Of a DNA stretch of 14,375 bases, positions 6,983 to 13,944 are shown piece after piece (the stretch's first letter is position 1; every line of letters begins with the position of its first letter). The stretch is from IMG/VR virus record IMGVR_UViG_2690316131_000006. One strand, given 5' to 3'. The position numbers and the translations under genes were made by a program. Under the pieces are notes generated by a model that made no database searches, had not been told where the DNA came from, and was given only the letters and a program-made list of their open reading frames with translations. This stretch comes from a virus. Lineage: Duplodnaviria; Heunggongvirae; Uroviricota; Caudoviricetes.

Positions 6983-7087
6983 ATGTCGGATGATATTTCA
7001 CTGGCAATGGAAGGTGCTCTGGCTGTTATTGCTGTTGTGGGCGTTTACTGCCTGGTTGTGTTTTTGATGGATCGACTAGGGAACTGA
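6983..7087 (+). CDS. Small hydrophobic peptide, 34 aa (MSDDISLAMEGALAVIAVVGVYCLVVFLMDRLGN), predicted membrane
   Basis: AGGAGG 4 nt upstream of ATG; one transmembrane-like segment. Not in the ORF track. Confidence 0.45.
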   Translation: MSDDISLAMEGALAVIAVVGVYCLVVFLMDRLGN

Positions 7088-7219
7088 ATTCATTACGATA
7101 TGGGAATTCCCATATCGGGTAAAAACGGTTTGCGGTAAAGCGAGAGTTAAGTAGAATTGCTGCGGGTGCTTGAGGCTGTCTGCCTCGGGCATGCCACCGT
7201 AAGGCAGACAGAGAAAAGC

Positions 7220-7285
7220 CCCAGTTAACATTACGCGTCCTGCAAGACGCCTAACATTAATCTGAGGCCAATTTCATGCTAGACA
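7220..7285 (-). ncRNA. sok: Sok-like antisense RNA of the hok locus (approximate position)
   Basis: Minus-strand promoter-like TTGCCT-17 nt-TAACCT at about 7291..7319 pointing leftward into the hok leader; inferred from hok/sok architecture, ends not determined. Confidence 0.3.
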
Positions 7286-7332
7286 TATGTAGGTTAGCCT
7301 CTTACGCGCCGAAAGGCAAGGAGAAGCAGGCT

Positions 7333-7488
7333 ATGAAGCAGCAAAAGGCGATGTTAATCGCCCTGATCGTCATCTGTATCACCGTCATAGTGACGGCACT
7401 GGTAACGAGGAAAGACCTCTGCGAGGTACGAATCCGAACCGGCCAGACGGAGGTCGCTGTCTTCACAGCTTACGAACCTGAGGAGTAA
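7333..7488 (+). CDS. hok: Hok/Gef-family type I toxin, 51 aa
   Basis: MKQQKAMLIALIVICITVIVTALVTRKDLCEVRIRTGQTEVAVFTAYEPEE: transmembrane helix plus conserved C-terminal motif; AAGGAG Shine-Dalgarno; in-frame upstream ATG at 7276 could be a mok-like start; 3' stem-loops and terminator downstream. Confidence 0.9.
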   Translation: MKQQKAMLIALIVICITVIVTALVTRKDLCEVRIRTGQTEVAVFTAYEPEE

Positions 7489-7557
7489 GAGACCCGGCGA
7501 GGGAGAAATCCCTCGCCACCTCTGATGAATCAGGCATCCTCAACGCACCCGCACTTA

Positions 7558-7583
7558 ACCCGCTTCGGCGGGTTTTGTTTTTT
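7558..7583 (+). terminator. Intrinsic terminator of the hok transcript
   Basis: ACCCGC-ttcg-GCGGGT hairpin followed by TTTGTTTTTT. Confidence 0.7.
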
Positions 7584-7655
7584 CCTGGCATTCTGGTTTA
7601 CAATTCGCACGCCAGCCTGAACAACTGGCACCTGCTGCGCCAGCAGAGACAACCG

Positions 7656-7934
7656 ATGGCGCACGATACCAAATTATACAATTCTGATGATTCTGCCGTC
7701 TTTGCCAGCAGGCGCGGACGGTGTTTTCACGCATTCAAATCTGACTGGTACCAGCATCCCCCATGCACTGAAGAACAGGCCGAATGGCTCATTCAGTGTT
7801 ACCGCAGGCGCGGATGCGAGGTTAAAAAAGCCCTTAGCCTCGACTACCGTCACTGGATAATCTCCGTCAGGCTCCCTTACTCCGAACGGCCACCGCGTCC
7901 GTCCCGCACATTCCAGCAACGGATCTGGAGGTAA
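7656..7934 (+). CDS. Hypothetical nin-region protein, 92 aa
   Basis: Only in-frame ATG after the hok terminator; weak Shine-Dalgarno; stop adjacent to the next start. Confidence 0.45.
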   Translation: MAHDTKLYNSDDSAVFASRRGRCFHAFKSDWYQHPPCTEEQAEWLIQCYRRRGCEVKKALSLDYRHWIISVRLPYSERPPRPSRTFQQRIWR

Positions 7935-7935
7935 T

Positions 7936-8985
7936 GTGCGGGTATTACTTCGACCTGTTCTGGTACCGGAACTCGGTCTGGTTATCGTTAAGCCAGGCCG
8001 TGAATCAATGTCAGCATTCCATAACGGCAGAATACTGGTGGAGCCGGAACCAAAAAGCATGCGAGCTCTGCCGTCCGGGGTTGTACCTGCCGTTCACCAG
8101 CCGCTGGCGGAAGATAAATCACTACTGCCATTTTTCAGCGATGAGCGGGTGAGCCGTGCTGCGGGTGGCGCTGGTGCACTGTCTGACTGGTTATTACGTC
8201 ACGTGAAATCCTGCCAGTGGCTACACGGTGATTATCATCACAGCGAAACCGTCATTCACCGTTACGGTACCGGCGCAATGGTGTTGTGCTGGCACTGCGA
8301 CAACCAGCTGCGTGACCAGACATCCGAATCACTCGAGCAACTTGCTCATCAAAACCTGTCAGCATGGATGATTGACGTCATCGGTCACGCAATAAGCGGT
8401 ACGCAGGAGCGTGAATTATCTCTGGCTGAATTATCCTGGTGGGCGGTCCGCAATCAGGTGGCGGACGCGCTACCGGAAGCGGTATTACGTCGTTCGCTGG
8501 GGTTGCGTGCGGAAAAAATCCGCTCCATGTACCGTGAAAGCGACATCGTACCGGGAGAGCAGACCGCCACCAGCATACTGAAACAGCGCACAAAAAATCT
8601 TGCGCCGCTGCCTCACGCCCACCAGCAACAGAACCCACCACAGGAAAAGACGGTGGTCAGCATTGCCGTTGATCCTGAGTCTCCGGAATCTTTCATGAAA
8701 CGACCTAAACGTCGCCGCTGGGTTAACGAGAAATACACTCGCTGGGTGAAGACACAGCCGTGTGCGTGTTGTGGTAAGCCAGCCGACGATCCCCATCACC
8801 TGATTGGTCATGGTCAGGGCGGAATGGGGACAAAATCTCACGATATTTTCACGCTACCGCTGTGTCGGGAGCATCACAACGAGCTTCATGCGGATCCGCT
8901 GGCGTTCGAAGAAAAGCATGGTTCTCAGGTTGATTTAATTTTTCGTTTTCTTGATCACGCCTTTGCAACTGGCGTGCTTGGGTAA
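7936..8985 (+). CDS. DUF968/YdfU-like protein with C-terminal HNH-like zinc-binding motif
   Basis: GTG start 5 nt after GGAGG; C-terminus ...QPCACCGKPADDPHHLIGHGQG...LPLCREHHNELH has Cys pairs with His-His as in HNH nucleases. Confidence 0.65.
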   Translation: MRVLLRPVLVPELGLVIVKPGRESMSAFHNGRILVEPEPKSMRALPSGVVPAVHQPLAEDKSLLPFFSDERVSRAAGGAGALSDWLLRHVKSCQWLHGDYHHSETVIHRYGTGAMVLCWHCDNQLRDQTSESLEQLAHQNLSAWMIDVIGHAISGTQERELSLAELSWWAVRNQVADALPEAVLRRSLGLRAEKIRSMYRESDIVPGEQTATSILKQRTKNLAPLPHAHQQQNPPQEKTVVSIAVDPESPESFMKRPKRRRWVNEKYTRWVKTQPCACCGKPADDPHHLIGHGQGGMGTKSHDIFTLPLCREHHNELHADPLAFEEKHGSQVDLIFRFLDHAFATGVLG

Positions 8986-8997
8986 AAGAGGTGACTG

Positions 8998-9372
8998 ATG
9001 CTCATAGATTTGGTTTTACCTTACCCGCCGACGGTGAACACTTACTGGCGACGCCGTGGCAGCACATATTTTATCTCGGAGGAGGGAAAGCGTTATCGCC
9101 GGGCTGTGGCGCTTATTGTTCGCCAGCAGCGGCTGAAATTAAGCCTGTCCGGAAGGCTGGCGATAAAGATTATTGCCGAGCCACCGGATAAGCGCCGCCG
9201 TGACTTGGACAATATTCTGAAAGCGCCGCTGGATGCGCTGACGCATGCGGGGTTGCTAATGGACGATGAGCAGTTTGATGAAATCAATATCGTTCGTGCT
9301 CAGCCAGTATCTGGTGGACGTCTGGGGGTGAAGATTTACCCCATAATGCTTGAAGGGCAGGTCAAAAAATGA
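8998..9372 (+). CDS. rusA: RusA-family Holliday junction resolvase
   Basis: 124 aa; PPTVNTYWRRRG...DKRRRDLDNILKAPLDALTHAGLLMDDEQ matches the RusA pattern (…RRDLDN…DAL…DD…); AGAGG Shine-Dalgarno. Confidence 0.85.
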   Translation: MLIDLVLPYPPTVNTYWRRRGSTYFISEEGKRYRRAVALIVRQQRLKLSLSGRLAIKIIAEPPDKRRRDLDNILKAPLDALTHAGLLMDDEQFDEINIVRAQPVSGGRLGVKIYPIMLEGQVKK

Positions 9373-10190
9373 AACTGGAAGATTTACCGAAATACTACTC
9401 CCCAAAATCCCCCGGCCTGACTGATGCATCGGCCTCAACGTCGAAAGATACGCTGAGTATCACTGATGTGATGGCTGCGCAGGGCATGACACAGAATTGG
9501 GCTGAGATGGGGTTTTCTGCGTTCCTTGGGAAAATGGGCATTAGTATGAATGACAGAGAGCGGGCAACAGAATTGCTGACAGAATATGCACTCAGTCGGT
9601 GTGATCGCGTGGCGGCGTTAAGAAAACTCCCGGCAGAAATAAAACCGGCAGTGATGCGTATTATGGCTTCGTATGCGTTTGAAGATTATGCCCGTAGCGC
9701 GGCGAGCAAAAAACAGTGCCCCTGTTGTCACGGAAAAAAATTTATTGAAAGCGAGGTTTTTACAAACAAGATCCAGTATCCGGATGGTAAGCCGCCAGTG
9801 TGGGCAAAGTGCACAAAAGGCGTGTATCCGTCTTACTGGGAGGAATGGAAAAAAGTCAGGGAGGTGGTAAAAGTTGCCTGTCCGGAGTGTGGAGGGAAGG
9901 GGGAGGTTTCCACCGCCTGTAAAGATTGTCGTGGGCGCGGTGTTGCCATTCATCGTGAAGAGTCGGTAAAACGTGGTATGCCTGTTATCAGAGACTGCCA
10001 GCGTTGTGGTGGTCGTGGCTATGAAAGATTACCTTCAACGGAGGCATTTAATGCCATATGTAATGTAACCGATGCCATATCTCTTGATACATGGAAAAAA
10101 ACAGTTAAACGTTTTTACGATACGCTGGTGGTGCAGTTTGATATTGAAGAAGCATGGGCAGAACAACAACTGAAAAAGGTGACCAGATAG
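9369..10190 (+). CDS. Putative late-gene antiterminator (Q-like, QuuQ-type position) with four DnaJ-type CxxCxGxG zinc-finger repeats
   Basis: ATGA overlap with rusA; CPCCHGKK, CPECGGKG, CKDCRGRG, CQRCGGRG; immediately followed by a strong promoter and a terminator. Call is by position. Confidence 0.55.
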   Translation: MKLEDLPKYYSPKSPGLTDASASTSKDTLSITDVMAAQGMTQNWAEMGFSAFLGKMGISMNDRERATELLTEYALSRCDRVAALRKLPAEIKPAVMRIMASYAFEDYARSAASKKQCPCCHGKKFIESEVFTNKIQYPDGKPPVWAKCTKGVYPSYWEEWKKVREVVKVACPECGGKGEVSTACKDCRGRGVAIHREESVKRGMPVIRDCQRCGGRGYERLPSTEAFNAICNVTDAISLDTWKKTVKRFYDTLVVQFDIEEAWAEQQLKKVTR

Positions 10191-10765: not shown

Positions 10766-11791
10766 ATGGTCAATACTGTAAAAATATCCAGTTGTGAATT
10801 AATCAACGCTGATTGCCTGGAATTTATCCAGACCTTACCGGAAAACTCTGTCGATCTGATAGTCACAGACCCGCCATACTTTAAAGTGAAGCCCGAAGGC
10901 TGGGATAACCAGTGGAAGGGCGACGATGATTACCTGAAATGGCTGGACCAGTGTCTGGCGCAGTTCTGGCGGTTACTGAAGCCTGCCGGAAGTCTTTACC
11001 TGTTCTGTGGTCATCGCCTGGCATCTGATATCGAAATCATGATGCGCGAACGCTTTAACGTGCTGAACCATATCATCTGGGCGAAGCCGTCCGGACGCTG
11101 GAACGGGTGCAGTAAGGAAAGCCTGCGGGCGTATTTTCCCGCCACAGAGCGTATTCTGTTTGCTGAACATTATCAGGGGCCATACCAGCCAAAAAATGGC
11201 GGCTATGCGGCAAAGGAGCGCGAGCTTAAACAGCATGTGATGTCTCCGCTGATTTCTTACTTTCGTGATGCGCGTGAATCACTGGGGATAACGTCGAAAC
11301 AGATAGCGGAAGCCACCGGAAAGAAAAACATGGTGTCGCACTGGTTTGGTGCCCGCCAGTGGCAGTTACCGAACGAGGATGATTACAGAAAACTGCAGGC
11401 GTTGTTTGCGCGTGTTGCAGCAGAAAAACATCAACGCGGGGAACTGGAAAAGCCACACCACCAGCTGGTCAGCACATACAGTGAACTTAACCGGCAATAT
11501 GCCAGCCTGCTGGAGGAGTACAAATCTTTGCGGCGTTATTTTTCTGTATCGGCTGCTGTTCCGTATACGGATGTCTGGATGTATAAGCCTGTACAGTATT
11601 ATCCGGGCAAACACCCCTGTGAAAAACCGGCAGATATGTTGCGTCAGATAATAGAGGCCAGCAGTCGTCCGGGTGATTTGGTTGCCGACTTTTTTATGGG
11701 GTCAGGTTCCACGATAAAAGCCGCGCTTTCGCTTGGTCGTCGGGCAATAGGCGTTGTGAGCTTGAGGCTGAACGGTTTGAGCAGACGGTGA
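10766..11791 (+). CDS. DNA methyltransferase, beta-class amino-methyltransferase (N6-adenine or N4-cytosine)
   Basis: N-terminal motif IV DLIVTDPPYF and C-terminal motif I DLVADFFMGSGST (order IV then I); 341 aa; no adjacent restriction endonuclease seen. Confidence 0.85.
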   Translation: MVNTVKISSCELINADCLEFIQTLPENSVDLIVTDPPYFKVKPEGWDNQWKGDDDYLKWLDQCLAQFWRLLKPAGSLYLFCGHRLASDIEIMMRERFNVLNHIIWAKPSGRWNGCSKESLRAYFPATERILFAEHYQGPYQPKNGGYAAKERELKQHVMSPLISYFRDARESLGITSKQIAEATGKKNMVSHWFGARQWQLPNEDDYRKLQALFARVAAEKHQRGELEKPHHQLVSTYSELNRQYASLLEEYKSLRRYFSVSAAVPYTDVWMYKPVQYYPGKHPCEKPADMLRQIIEASSRPGDLVADFFMGSGSTIKAALSLGRRAIGVVSLRLNGLSRR

Positions 11792-11938: not shown

Positions 11939-12199
11939 ATGATTGAGGTTCGATGGACAAGGACAGCCCTGAAGCAGTTACTTCGTGTGGATACGCGGTA
12001 TCGGCAGGCGATAAAGGATAAGGTCGGTGCGCTAAAGGATTTTCCTCTGGTAGCCATGGATTTTAAAAAGCTATCAGGGAGTGACAATCGATTCCGTTTG
12101 AGGGTCGGCGTGTACAGGGTTATTTTTGATGTTGAGGATGGTGATCCTGTTGTCCTGGATATTAAGGAAATTAAGCGCAGAAGCACAACCACATACTAA
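11939..12199 (+). CDS. RelE/ParE-superfamily type II toxin (HigB-like, toxin-first order)
   Basis: 86 aa; ...NRFRLRVGVYRVIFDVEDGDPVVLDIKEIKRR typical of the RelE/ParE fold; GAGGGGGG Shine-Dalgarno. Confidence 0.8.
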   Translation: MIEVRWTRTALKQLLRVDTRYRQAIKDKVGALKDFPLVAMDFKKLSGSDNRFRLRVGVYRVIFDVEDGDPVVLDIKEIKRRSTTTY

Positions 12200-12259
12200 G
12201 GGAGGCTGGCGGGAGACCGCCAGTTTGCTGAACGACATTCAATCGCGAAAGGCAATGAT

Positions 12260-12634
12260 ATGAAAAACAGTGTCCAGTTTATTACTGATAATGCCGGTGT
12301 TAGAACCGGGGTCATTATGTCAGTTGCTGAATATGAACGGCTGTTAAGTCTGGCAGATCCTGATGATGATTTTGAAAGCATCCAGTATGAAGCCGGAGAG
12401 AATGACAATGAAACAATACCTCATGAAGTAGTATCCATCATGATTGATGATGATGTGTCATTGTTGGCAGCATGGCGGATTTACAGGCGAATGACTCAAC
12501 AGGAAGTGGCGGAGCGCCTGGGGGTTAAACAGTCAGCCGTATCTCAGTTTGAGAGAGCAGGAGCTCCGCGAAAATCAACACTGGAAAAACTGGCTGAGAT
12601 TTACAACTGCCGACCAAATCAGTTGGCTGATTAA
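12260..12634 (+). CDS. HigA-like antitoxin with C-terminal XRE helix-turn-helix
   Basis: 124 aa; ...MTQQEVAERLGVKQSAVSQFERAGAPRKSTLEKLAEIY; directly downstream of the toxin. Confidence 0.8.
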   Translation: MKNSVQFITDNAGVRTGVIMSVAEYERLLSLADPDDDFESIQYEAGENDNETIPHEVVSIMIDDDVSLLAAWRIYRRMTQQEVAERLGVKQSAVSQFERAGAPRKSTLEKLAEIYNCRPNQLAD

Positions 12635-12941: not shown

Positions 12942-13373
12942 ATGTTTGGTATTTTCAAAAAGAAAACCCGCAGAGCAGCAACTGAAATTAAAAAGTTTGA
13001 GAAACGCGATCTGGCACAGGCGGTTATTAATGCTGCCTACCTGGTGGCCTATGCAGATGGTGAATGTGAGACTTCAGAGAAAGCGAAGATCGAACAGGTA
13101 TTACGTAACCAGCCAGCATTGTCCGCATTTACGTCAGAAATTAATGCCATCAGTGCCACGATCACAGGTCAGCTTGACACCAATTTTAAAATTGGTCGTC
13201 GTGCAGCGTTGCGTGAAATTGAAGATGTGAAACACGATACGCGTGAAGCGGAAGACGTGCTGGATGTGGCGGTGGCCATTGCTGAAGCAGATGGTGAAAT
13301 TGAGCCGGAAGAGCGTAAGGTTCTGGAAGAGATTGCTGGTGTTCTTGGCCTGCGACTGGAGAACCACCTGTGA
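12942..13373 (+). CDS. TerB-family (tellurite-resistance TerB-like) protein, 143 aa
   Basis: Two acidic ADGE motifs (AYADGECETSEKAKIEQ and AEADGEIEPEERKVLEEI) typical of TerB; AAAAGGAAAAG upstream of ATG. Confidence 0.75.
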   Translation: MFGIFKKKTRRAATEIKKFEKRDLAQAVINAAYLVAYADGECETSEKAKIEQVLRNQPALSAFTSEINAISATITGQLDTNFKIGRRAALREIEDVKHDTREAEDVLDVAVAIAEADGEIEPEERKVLEEIAGVLGLRLENHL

Positions 13374-13537: not shown

Positions 13538-13704
13538 TTTTTTTGTTTGCTGTTTATTAAAAACACTTCTGCATGGTGAATCCCCCTGTGCGGTGGGGCA
13601 ATCAGCAAGAAGGAATATGGGGTAATCGCGGATTCAGGTGCTGATACTGAATTCACCGGGAGGCACCCGGCACCATGCAAGAAAAAGAATGTGCATGCAA
13701 ACAT

Positions 13705-13728
13705 GCCCCTCTCCGGAGGGGCTTTTTT
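13705..13728 (+). terminator. Intrinsic terminator
   Basis: Perfect GCCCCTC-tccg-GAGGGGC hairpin followed by six T. Confidence 0.65.
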
Positions 13729-13732
13729 ATGG

Positions 13733-13760
13733 GTAAAAAAATGCCCGAATGGGTTCGGGC
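13733..13760 (-). terminator. Convergent (minus-strand) terminator-like hairpin
   Basis: GCCCGAA-tggg-TTCGGGC, which on the minus strand is followed by TTTTTTT (13733..13739). Confidence 0.4.
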
Positions 13761-13944
13761 AATAGCATGAGATACTGATATTGTTGTGTTGTTATCGTGT
13801 GGATTTTAACCAGGGTTTATCAGGCTGCGCAACTGCGTGGCCTTTTTTCATTTCTTGGGCTGTAGTCCCCGTGTGTCATTCAGGCTTCCGGACTACAGCC
13901 CACTCCATATCTGATTTAATACACTATCCCGGCCGGGAGGAATA

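Follow-up and report, generated by a model that had tools for sequence, protein, structure and literature searches.

A probable intact hok/sok-family type I toxin-antitoxin module of the hokD/hokW subtype in the nin-equivalent region of a lambdoid Escherichia coli prophage

INTRODUCTION

Type I toxin-antitoxin loci of the hok/sok family have been described on plasmids, as in the case of hok/sok (parB) of R1 and the IncF plasmids, in prophages, as in the case of hokW-sokW of the Stx2 prophage Sp5 of Escherichia coli O157:H7 Sakai and hokD (relF) of the Qin prophage of E. coli K-12, and at non-prophage chromosomal positions, as in the case of E. coli hokC/sokC (gef). The present analysis concerns a related locus in a stretch of 14,375 nucleotides (nt) of DNA (IMG/VR virus record IMGVR_UViG_2690316131_000006; Caudoviricetes), the whole of which is referred to here as the window, and for which an original prediction, made from the sequence alone, had proposed a complete hok/sok-type cassette at positions 7140-7583.

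In Sp5, HokW is toxic and is counteracted by sokW; following exposure to mitomycin C, sokW RNA vanishes and HokW appears in a RecA-dependent manner, while deletion of the hokW-sokW locus halves phage release, and the behavior of the transcripts (slow 3' processing, cleavage of the Sok-mRNA duplex by RNase III, and instability of Sok relative to a stable mRNA) has been demonstrated in part (PMC8621323). Hok itself is widespread, being present, according to a recent survey, in approximately 80% of Enterobacteriaceae genomes, with an enrichment in prophages, and in 9.3% of Escherichia phages (bioRxiv 10.1101/2025.08.07.668861).

RESULTS AND DISCUSSION

Identity and setting of the cassette

Positions 7130-7583 of the window are, with high confidence, occupied by an intact hok/sok-family type I toxin-antitoxin module of the hokD/hokW subtype, which a lambdoid E. 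coli prophage carries as cargo (a "moron") in its nin-equivalent region. The RNA logic of the module is deduced from the sequence together with published work on R1 and hokW. All sequence-level hallmarks of such a locus were found, the toxin, mok start, leader, Sok gene, 3' hairpin and terminator each being present, and the completeness claimed in the original prediction was thereby upheld. The left end of its span requires extension, as the -35 hexamer of the hok promoter (7130-7135) falls outside it. The cassette is already known and ordinary, and is labeled hokD in databases: its DNA is 100% identical in E. coli FORC_042, the best match of the window (99.2% identity over 89% of its length), where RefSeq names the product "type I toxin-antitoxin system toxin HokD."

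In the window, a lambdoid E. coli prophage, the replication genes (3295-5019) are followed by genes for DUF1627, DUF977 and DUF551 proteins, a 34-amino-acid (aa) open reading frame (ORF), hok, a 92-aa ORF, and genes for a DUF968 protein, RusA and the antiterminator Q (9369-10190). The cassette, which is oriented in the same direction as the surrounding replication-to-Q operon, is located between the replication genes and RusA/Q (8998-10190), in agreement with the nin-region location originally proposed. Because it possesses its own promoter and terminator, lies between the replication genes and Q, and is exchanged among syntenic phages, it was assigned as a nin-region cargo cassette.

The Hok toxin and the mok reading frame

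The coding features of the cassette, with the ribosome-binding sequences (Shine-Dalgarno [SD]) that precede them, are as follows.

7333-7488, plus strand: hok toxin ORF, 51 aa, MKQQKAMLIALIVICITVIVTALVTRKDLCEVRIRTGQTEVAVFTAYEPEE
7318-7323, plus strand: hok SD AAGGAG, conserved in the 37-locus alignment described below; homology to the truncated K-12 hokD starts at the same point
7276-7488, plus strand: mok-like ORF of 70 codons that shares the hok frame and would encode an N-terminally extended Hok
7264-7268, plus strand: mok SD GAGGC, predicted to be sequestered by ucb (the upstream complementary box) in the full-length RNA fold and paired with dcb (the downstream complementary box, 7297-7301) in the truncated fold

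The product of the 51-aa ORF matches the whole of the Pfam model PF01848 HOK_GEF (81.9 bits, against a cut-off of 22 bits; E = 2.3e-23) as well as PHROG 251, "MokW-like host killing" (E = 2.8e-33), which PHROGs places in its moron category. The hok frame, whose disruption had been named beforehand as part of a refuting observation, is intact. The in-frame mok-like start at ATG 7276 is likewise present and is backed by homology: the 70-aa ORF corresponds to that of K-12 mokC, annotated with an in-frame start and sharing its stop codon with hokC. By analogy, the mok translation-initiation region would represent the regulated site, with hok translation coupled to it.

Conservation of these features was assessed across 65 unique cassettes of at least 85% identity, which were compared for the ORF, the mok extension and the Sok promoter hexamers. 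The 51-aa hok ORF is kept in 61 of the 65, the remaining 4 having merely been missed by the start-site pattern, and the in-frame 19-codon ATG extension is kept in 51 of the 61 cassettes with an intact hok ORF.

It was also observed that the Tyr47 codon of hok (TAC) lies in a UACG context (7471-7474), and that the hexamer TACGAA shows no variation among the 37 aligned hok loci, the R1 type included. UACG is the reported context for adenosine-to-inosine editing by TadA, which recodes Tyr to Cys in hokB and is reported likewise for hokC, hokD and hokE (bioRxiv 10.1101/2025.08.07.668861).

The hok mRNA and its predicted folds

The following features, listed from the 5' to the 3' end, were assigned to the hok transcription unit.

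7130-7157, plus strand: predicted hok promoter, -35 TTGCGG (7130-7135), 16-nt spacer, -10 TAGAAT (7152-7157)
7164-7583, plus strand: predicted full-length hok mRNA, approximately 420 nt, from GGGUGCUUGAGG to the T run of the terminator
7164-7175, plus strand: tac (translational activator) element at the mRNA 5' end, pairing with fbi (7538-7550) in the full-length RNA or with ucb (7216-7222) in the truncated RNA
7176-7211, plus strand: 5' leader hairpin between tac and ucb, present in both folds
7216-7224, plus strand: ucb, the anti-SD of mok, whose partner is the mok SD (7262-7268) in the full-length RNA and tac in the truncated RNA
7279-7285, plus strand: Sok-target hairpin loop CUAGACA of the truncated-mRNA fold, containing a YUNR-type CUAG
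7297-7301, plus strand: dcb, GCCUC, partner of the mok SD in the truncated RNA, with almost no variation among 37 loci
7496-7517, plus strand: 3' stem-loop GGCGAGGG-AGAAAT-CCCTCGCC, arms 7496-7503 and 7510-7517
7538-7550, plus strand: fbi (fold-back inhibition) element CCUCAACGCACCC, forming 12 base pairs with tac with one bulge
7557-7583, plus strand: intrinsic terminator AACCCGC-TTCG-GCGGGTT followed by a T run, hairpin at 7557-7574

The hok promoter was assigned by position and conservation, its predicted -10 element (GTAnAAT) being conserved 6 to 7 nt upstream of GGGTGC across 37 loci. The mRNA 5' end was placed at approximately 7164 by homology to an R1-type plasmid locus, K-12 hokC/sokC and the hokW locus of L004 (Stx2 converting phage I), which served as the Sp5 proxy and matches exactly all primers of Takada et al. 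(PMC8621323). The long structured leader proposed for this region is supported by Rfam model RF01794, the full length of which (1-157) matches the plus strand from 7164 to 7338 with a score of 114.3 bits (gathering score, 59; E = 7e-26). The model bears the name "sok," and the match was considered as evidence for an antisense gene; this was rejected, as RF01794 covers the leader on the hok-sense strand.

The minimum free energy (MFE) fold of the full-length RNA (7164-7583; -176.1 kcal/mol) pairs the 5' and 3' ends, tac (7164-7175) with fbi (7538-7550), and ucb with the mok SD (7218-7224 with 7262-7268). When fbi is removed (7164-7536), tac pairs instead with ucb (7164-7171 with 7216-7222) and the SD with dcb (7264-7268 with 7297-7301). 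The full-length fold is thus modeled as a closed, untranslatable form and the truncated fold as an open form with a predicted docking loop for Sok, a switch that matches the description of the R1 hok mRNA (PMC9841398). The tac/fbi pairing, which is the most diagnostic feature of a hok mRNA and was not mentioned in the original prediction, is present.

The 3' hairpin had been correctly recognized, although its coordinates (7495..7516) require a shift of one base rightward, to 7496-7517. Its counterpart is the last stem-loop of the truncated R1 hok mRNA, which shields that RNA from 3' exonucleases (PMC9841398). The terminator, as claimed, consists of a hairpin (7557-7574) and a T run; it is common to K-12 Qin hokD and mEp460 and represents the right edge of the module.

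Comparative support for the RNA helices

Sixty hok loci were collected from contigs representing one genome per species, and the 37 full-length loci were aligned; these derive from Escherichia, Kluyvera, Photorhabdus, Pantoea, Pseudocitrobacter, unclassified enterobacteria and an R1-type plasmid. The proportions of alignment cells capable of pairing over these 37 loci were as follows.

Closed (full-length) structure: 92.1% paired; 40-51% when partner columns were slid by 1 to 3
Open (truncated) structure: 95.9% paired; 42-56% when partner columns were slid by 1 to 3

Compensatory changes were apparent in several helices. The tac-fbi helix has UA in 22 loci and CG in 12 at alignment columns 23/446, with GC/AU exchanges also occurring, across genera. 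The ucb-SD helix is paired at 90.5%, with covariation in the helix extension (AU:25/GC:10 and GC:19/AU:15), and the 5' leader hairpin (7176-7211) at 93.5%, with three pairs changed on both sides. For the 3' hairpin (7496-7517), pairing reaches 95-97% with covariation of AU:29/GC:5. The predicted Sok hairpin also covaries over the aligned loci, as does the 17- to 18-nt extension of the ucb-SD/Sok hairpin within the hokD/hokW subgroup (GC:13/AU:3). The two remaining helices, tac-ucb and SD-dcb, are paired at 98.5% and 97.3%, respectively.

The Sok antisense gene

Two features were assigned to the minus strand.

7291-7319, minus strand: predicted Sok promoter, -35 TTGCCT (7319-7314), 17-nt spacer, -10 TAACCT (7296-7291)
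approximately 7284 to 7210, minus strand: predicted Sok-like antisense RNA, approximately 75 nt, comprising a single-stranded 5' tail, a long hairpin and a UUUUCUCU tail

The convergent promoter-like element originally proposed for a Sok-like RNA is thus identifiable in the sequence; seven bases past its -10 hexamer is a G, at 7284. Neither this promoter nor that of hok was detected by a generic sigma-70 scan with a threshold of 4/6 per hexamer, as each includes a weak hexamer (3-4/6) that falls short of it, and both were consequently placed via homology to K-12 sokC, the R1-type locus and the mutated -10 box of sokW. In the latter case, the promoter-less sokW mutant (Takada et al. 2021, PMC8621323, primers YO-421/422) alters the bases equivalent to window positions 7290-7296, i.e., the predicted Sok -10, and the sokW fragment that complements in trans is equivalent to 7182-7336, which encloses the predicted Sok gene; mutation of the sokW -10 unmasked HokW toxicity (PMC8621323). 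Identical Sok hexamers are present in 47 of the 61 close cassettes.

The ends of Sok were set by alignment to the annotated K-12 sokC, and the RNA is predicted to fold (-32.9 kcal/mol) into a long hairpin preceded by a single-stranded 5' tail of 10 to 15 nt. The loop CUAGACA of the open mRNA is complementary to this predicted tail; in R1, a YUNR/U-turn motif has a role in recognition by Sok. The region that encompasses the recognition tail and target loop (7255-7284; columns 141-165 of the 37-locus alignment) was observed to be the most variable part of the leader, with 6 of 30 positions differing from sokW (L004 3636-3665), variation which could insulate co-resident copies from cross-talk.

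A variable cargo slot upstream of DUF968

The original prediction had described the cassette as a self-contained insertion, a claim of which the first part stands. The block 7145-7582 recurs with differing left flanks (QueH; DUF7167; or DUF551 and the 34-aa ORF) and with unrelated right flanks (DUF1367/DUF1364/DUF1133), and it is found near the att and tail-fibre end in 933W/Sp5-type Stx phages. Comparison with relatives lacking an intact cassette, as had been suggested, revealed exchange of the cargo in this slot. In three loci, L123 (406-2700), L124 and L126, a C5 cytosine methyltransferase and an NgoMIV-type restriction endonuclease take the place of 7269-7555, with the hok promoter/leader remnant (7141-7268) and the terminator (7556 onward) being kept and the methylase gene located directly behind the hok leader. 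Such remnants on either side of the restriction-modification pair indicate that hok/sok was the earlier occupant there. In L077 (1967-2592), the slot ahead of the 92-aa ORF and DUF968 is filled by a ParE/ParD type II toxin-antitoxin pair encoded on the opposite strand; in L141 it carries an unassigned membrane protein of 153 aa. In L074 (1289-2383), an element of approximately 1.1 kb encoding a 362-aa transposase-like protein (rve-type, the family being assigned by eye) is inserted at the equivalent of 7319-7324 with an apparent 6-bp duplication, a site in the Sok -35/hok SD region that recalls the insertion sequence-inactivated hok loci of K-12. Judged from these comparisons, the cassette is a module that is both self-contained and exchangeable, its slot is variable, and the position upstream of the DUF968-RusA-Q block appears to be one at which toxin-antitoxin and restriction-modification modules replace one another.

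The second part of the claim, that the module entered by insertion, was not substantiated. A search for an empty site with the joined flanks (6760-7110 and 7590-7940) returned 566 genomes with both, of which a spread sample of rows was inspected, and none of the 11 sampled hits that include both flanks showed a clean empty junction. All 11 have an annotated Hok gene between the flanks, with ten of them (at least 80% query coverage) spanning approximately 1117-1181 bp and the eleventh (H89, 58% coverage) 937 bp. Furthermore, among 80 IMG/VR loci that share the DUF968 gene, 72 hold at least part of the cassette. These observations, together with the remnants in L123, L124 and L126 and the shared order of hokD, rem, DUF968 and Q in K-12 Qin, favor an alternative to which we would grant somewhat less than an even chance, namely, that hok/sok occupied this nin-region position ancestrally in the prophage lineage and that relatives without it have lost or replaced it. 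It is countered by the presence of the same block between unrelated left and right flanks, and at a wholly different position in Stx phages, which implies that it moves as a unit by recombination.

Two sequence features adjoin the left side of the cassette. The 11-nt sequence GGGTAAAAACG is directly repeated, with one copy ahead of the 34-aa ORF (6942-6952) and the other ahead of the hok -35 (7117-7127), and was not reported as a family by the repeat search; it was considered as a target-site duplication and rejected, given that neither copy is on the right side of the cassette, both being on its left, and that the second lies within the block common to hokW. A perfect 22-bp palindrome, CGATATGGGAATTCCCATATCG (7096-7117), adjoins the left edge. 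The palindrome and repeat possibly represent a recombination joint or a protein-binding site.

Prevalence

Matches to the cassette were found in 4724 of 5426 complete E. coli genomes and extend over at least 80% of its length in 4026 (approximately three quarters), with a median of two and a maximum of 10 matching places per genome. The cassette is identical in many unrelated strains and matches 78 phage records. Beyond its correct annotation, the finding is of little significance, representing a textbook system at a site that is occupied in most E. coli genomes.

Proposed mechanism and biological role

On the basis of the predicted folds and the published systems, a constitutive promoter would give rise to a stable hok mRNA of 420 nt that is translationally inert, tac being clamped to fbi and the mok ribosome-binding site sequestered by ucb. 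Slow 3' trimming to the region of the 7496-7517 stem-loop would remove fbi, upon which tac would take ucb, the mok SD would pair with dcb and the target hairpin would form. The open mRNA would then have one of two fates: either ribosomes would translate mok, with coupled translation of the 51-aa membrane toxin Hok, or Sok, an abundant but short-lived RNA (approximately 7284 to 7210, minus strand), would dock on the loop, block mok and trigger cleavage of the duplex. For as long as Sok is transcribed the cell would be safe, and a stop in transcription or loss of Sok would allow the stable mRNA pool to kill or lyse it. By analogy with hokW-sokW of Sp5, the role of the cassette is most likely to aid lysis and phage release upon induction, with prophage addiction and abortive defense against lytic phages as putative secondary, non-exclusive functions.

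A number of points weigh against this interpretation of an intact and functional module. The Hok-family and HokA models of NCBIfam score the product at only 48 and 40 bits, under their cut-offs of 73 and 89, and no match to a dedicated HokD model was obtained, so that NCBIfam was left out of the subtype assignment. The MFE folds are predictions only, and the near invariance of the tac-ucb and SD-dcb helices means that covariation lends them no support either way, as would be expected where each segment must pair with two partners. We infer transcription, processing and toxicity of the window cassette from folds, covariation and homology. The effect on phage release in Sp5 is only two-fold (PMC8621323), and hokW occupies a different site in its phage, such that the induction phenotype may not transfer to the nin-region copy. 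Finally, chromosomal hokA, hokB and hokC are reported to show neither post-segregational killing nor a response to rifampicin (summarized in bioRxiv 10.1101/2025.08.07.668861), and structural integrity is thus no guarantee of activity.

Among the alternative roles, it appears unlikely that the main function is abortive-infection defense against lytic phages, in which shut-off of host transcription would deplete Sok and free Hok, with lysis help and addiction being secondary. R1 hok/sok reduces T4 plating by 42% and plaque size by approximately 85% (cited in PMC8621323 and in bioRxiv 10.1101/2025.08.07.668861), and the slot in relatives holds other addiction or defense modules (ParDE and the restriction-modification pair). 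However, the T4 effect is modest and needed a high-copy plasmid, the bioRxiv survey reports no enrichment of hok near defense systems, and for the hokD/hokW subtype a defense role would rest on analogy with R1.

Less probable still is that the cassette, while intact, is physiologically silent in the manner of hokA, hokB and hokC, being transcribed but so tightly repressed, or so poorly processed, that Hok stays unreleased, and persisting only by hitch-hiking and inter-prophage recombination. Apart from the chromosomal loci cited above, such silence would accord with the multiple matching places per genome and with the frequent destruction of copies, by fusion to relBE (K-12 Qin), by a transposase (L074) or by restriction-modification replacement (L123), which fits weak selection on each copy. 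Against it stand the conservation of all regulatory elements and of the ORF with compensatory changes, the activity and phenotype of the 91%-identical hokW-sokW (PMC8621323), and the toxicity that assays are reported to show for the HokD peptide (50/51 residues identical). A chance ORF or decayed pseudogene is ruled out by the Pfam and Rfam matches, the helix conservation over 37 loci and the retention of the ORF in close cassettes.

In extension of the proposed role in phage release, the nin-region copy may, as a speculative and rather doubtful proposition, function as a sensor of induction, removing Sok and so timing Hok-assisted lysis, with the slot acting as a dedicated exchange point for addiction and defense modules (hok/sok, ParDE and the NgoMIV-type restriction-modification pair). 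As the cassette is sense-oriented within the early rightward (replication to Q) unit, post-induction read-through would run head-on into the Sok promoter and would also yield 5'-extended hok transcripts without a free tac end.

Other features of the window

Immediately upstream of the cassette is a strongly hydrophobic ORF of 34 aa, MSDDISLAMEGALAVIAVVGVYCLVVFLMDRLGN (6983-7087), with a strong SD, AAGGAGGG, which is annotated as "hypothetical protein" in RefSeq and for which no Pfam, NCBIfam or PHROG match was found. Three small RNAs already known from prophages pass their Rfam gathering scores: DicF (323-374, minus strand; 75.8 bits), STnc100 (13542-13734, plus strand; 142.5 bits) and the anti-GcvB sponge AgvB (13736-13797, minus strand; 96.5 bits). 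Downstream of Q, the annotation of the identical region in FORC_042 points to a second toxin-antitoxin pair, consisting of a RelE-family toxin and a helix-turn-helix antitoxin-like gene and followed by a TerB-family gene (together at approximately 11940-12634 and 12942-13373), while the DNA methyltransferase gene at 10766-11791 is annotated as frameshifted in that strain. The immunity region is mosaic, with a 257-aa repressor-like ORF (1884-2657) in the window versus racR in FORC_042 (L001 2467-2943), and it is because of this difference that coverage by FORC_042 is limited to 89%.

Comparison with known hok/sok systems

The alignment with R1 hok/sok and with chromosomal hok loci that had been proposed as a check was performed with an R1 sequence that is 100% identical to IncF plasmids, and it revealed homologous leader, mok and Sok elements. 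The number of residues of the window Hok that are identical in each relative is as follows.

K-12 HokD: 50/51
HokW: 47/51
HokC: 42/50
R1-type Hok: 22/52

The hok/sok (parB) system of R1 and IncF plasmids, which is plasmid-borne and has a proven role in post-segregational killing, shares the architecture and predicted switch of the window cassette (tac/fbi, ucb/mok-SD, dcb and the protective 3' hairpin) as well as a convergent Sok with a promoter of the TTGnnn-17-TAnCCT type. Its mok, however, is read in a different frame from hok (offset 1) and terminates 4 nt ahead of the hok stop; in the window the two share a frame. An in-frame mokC, and a leader and Sok gene homologous to those of the window, are found in hokC/sokC (gef) of E. 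coli, a chromosomal, non-prophage locus adjoined in K-12 by IS186, which lacks the 17- to 18-nt stem extension of the Sok hairpin that typifies the hokD/hokW subgroup.

The hokW-sokW locus of Sp5 (PMC8621323) is approximately 91% identical in DNA over 7142-7560, with the same Sok -35 and -10 hexamers, an in-frame mok and the 17-nt stem extension of the ucb-SD/Sok hairpin. It differs in its location, which is close to att and the tail-fibre genes as opposed to the nin region, and in its 3' end, which diverges past fbi, such that the 7557-7583 terminator is not common to both.

K-12 Qin hokD (relF) represents the same gene and locus, with 97.4% DNA identity from the hok SD to the terminator and a gene order (hokD, the small ORF rem, ydfU [DUF968] and Q) equal to that of the window. 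In Qin, however, homology starts at AAGGAG, directly after relE, and the promoter, tac, ucb, mok start and Sok gene are all missing, while the window copy has all of these. As the homology runs only from the hok SD, the window cassette represents the complete version of a locus that relBE has cut short in the laboratory strain, and it would thus be the proper template for studies of native hokD/sokD regulation.

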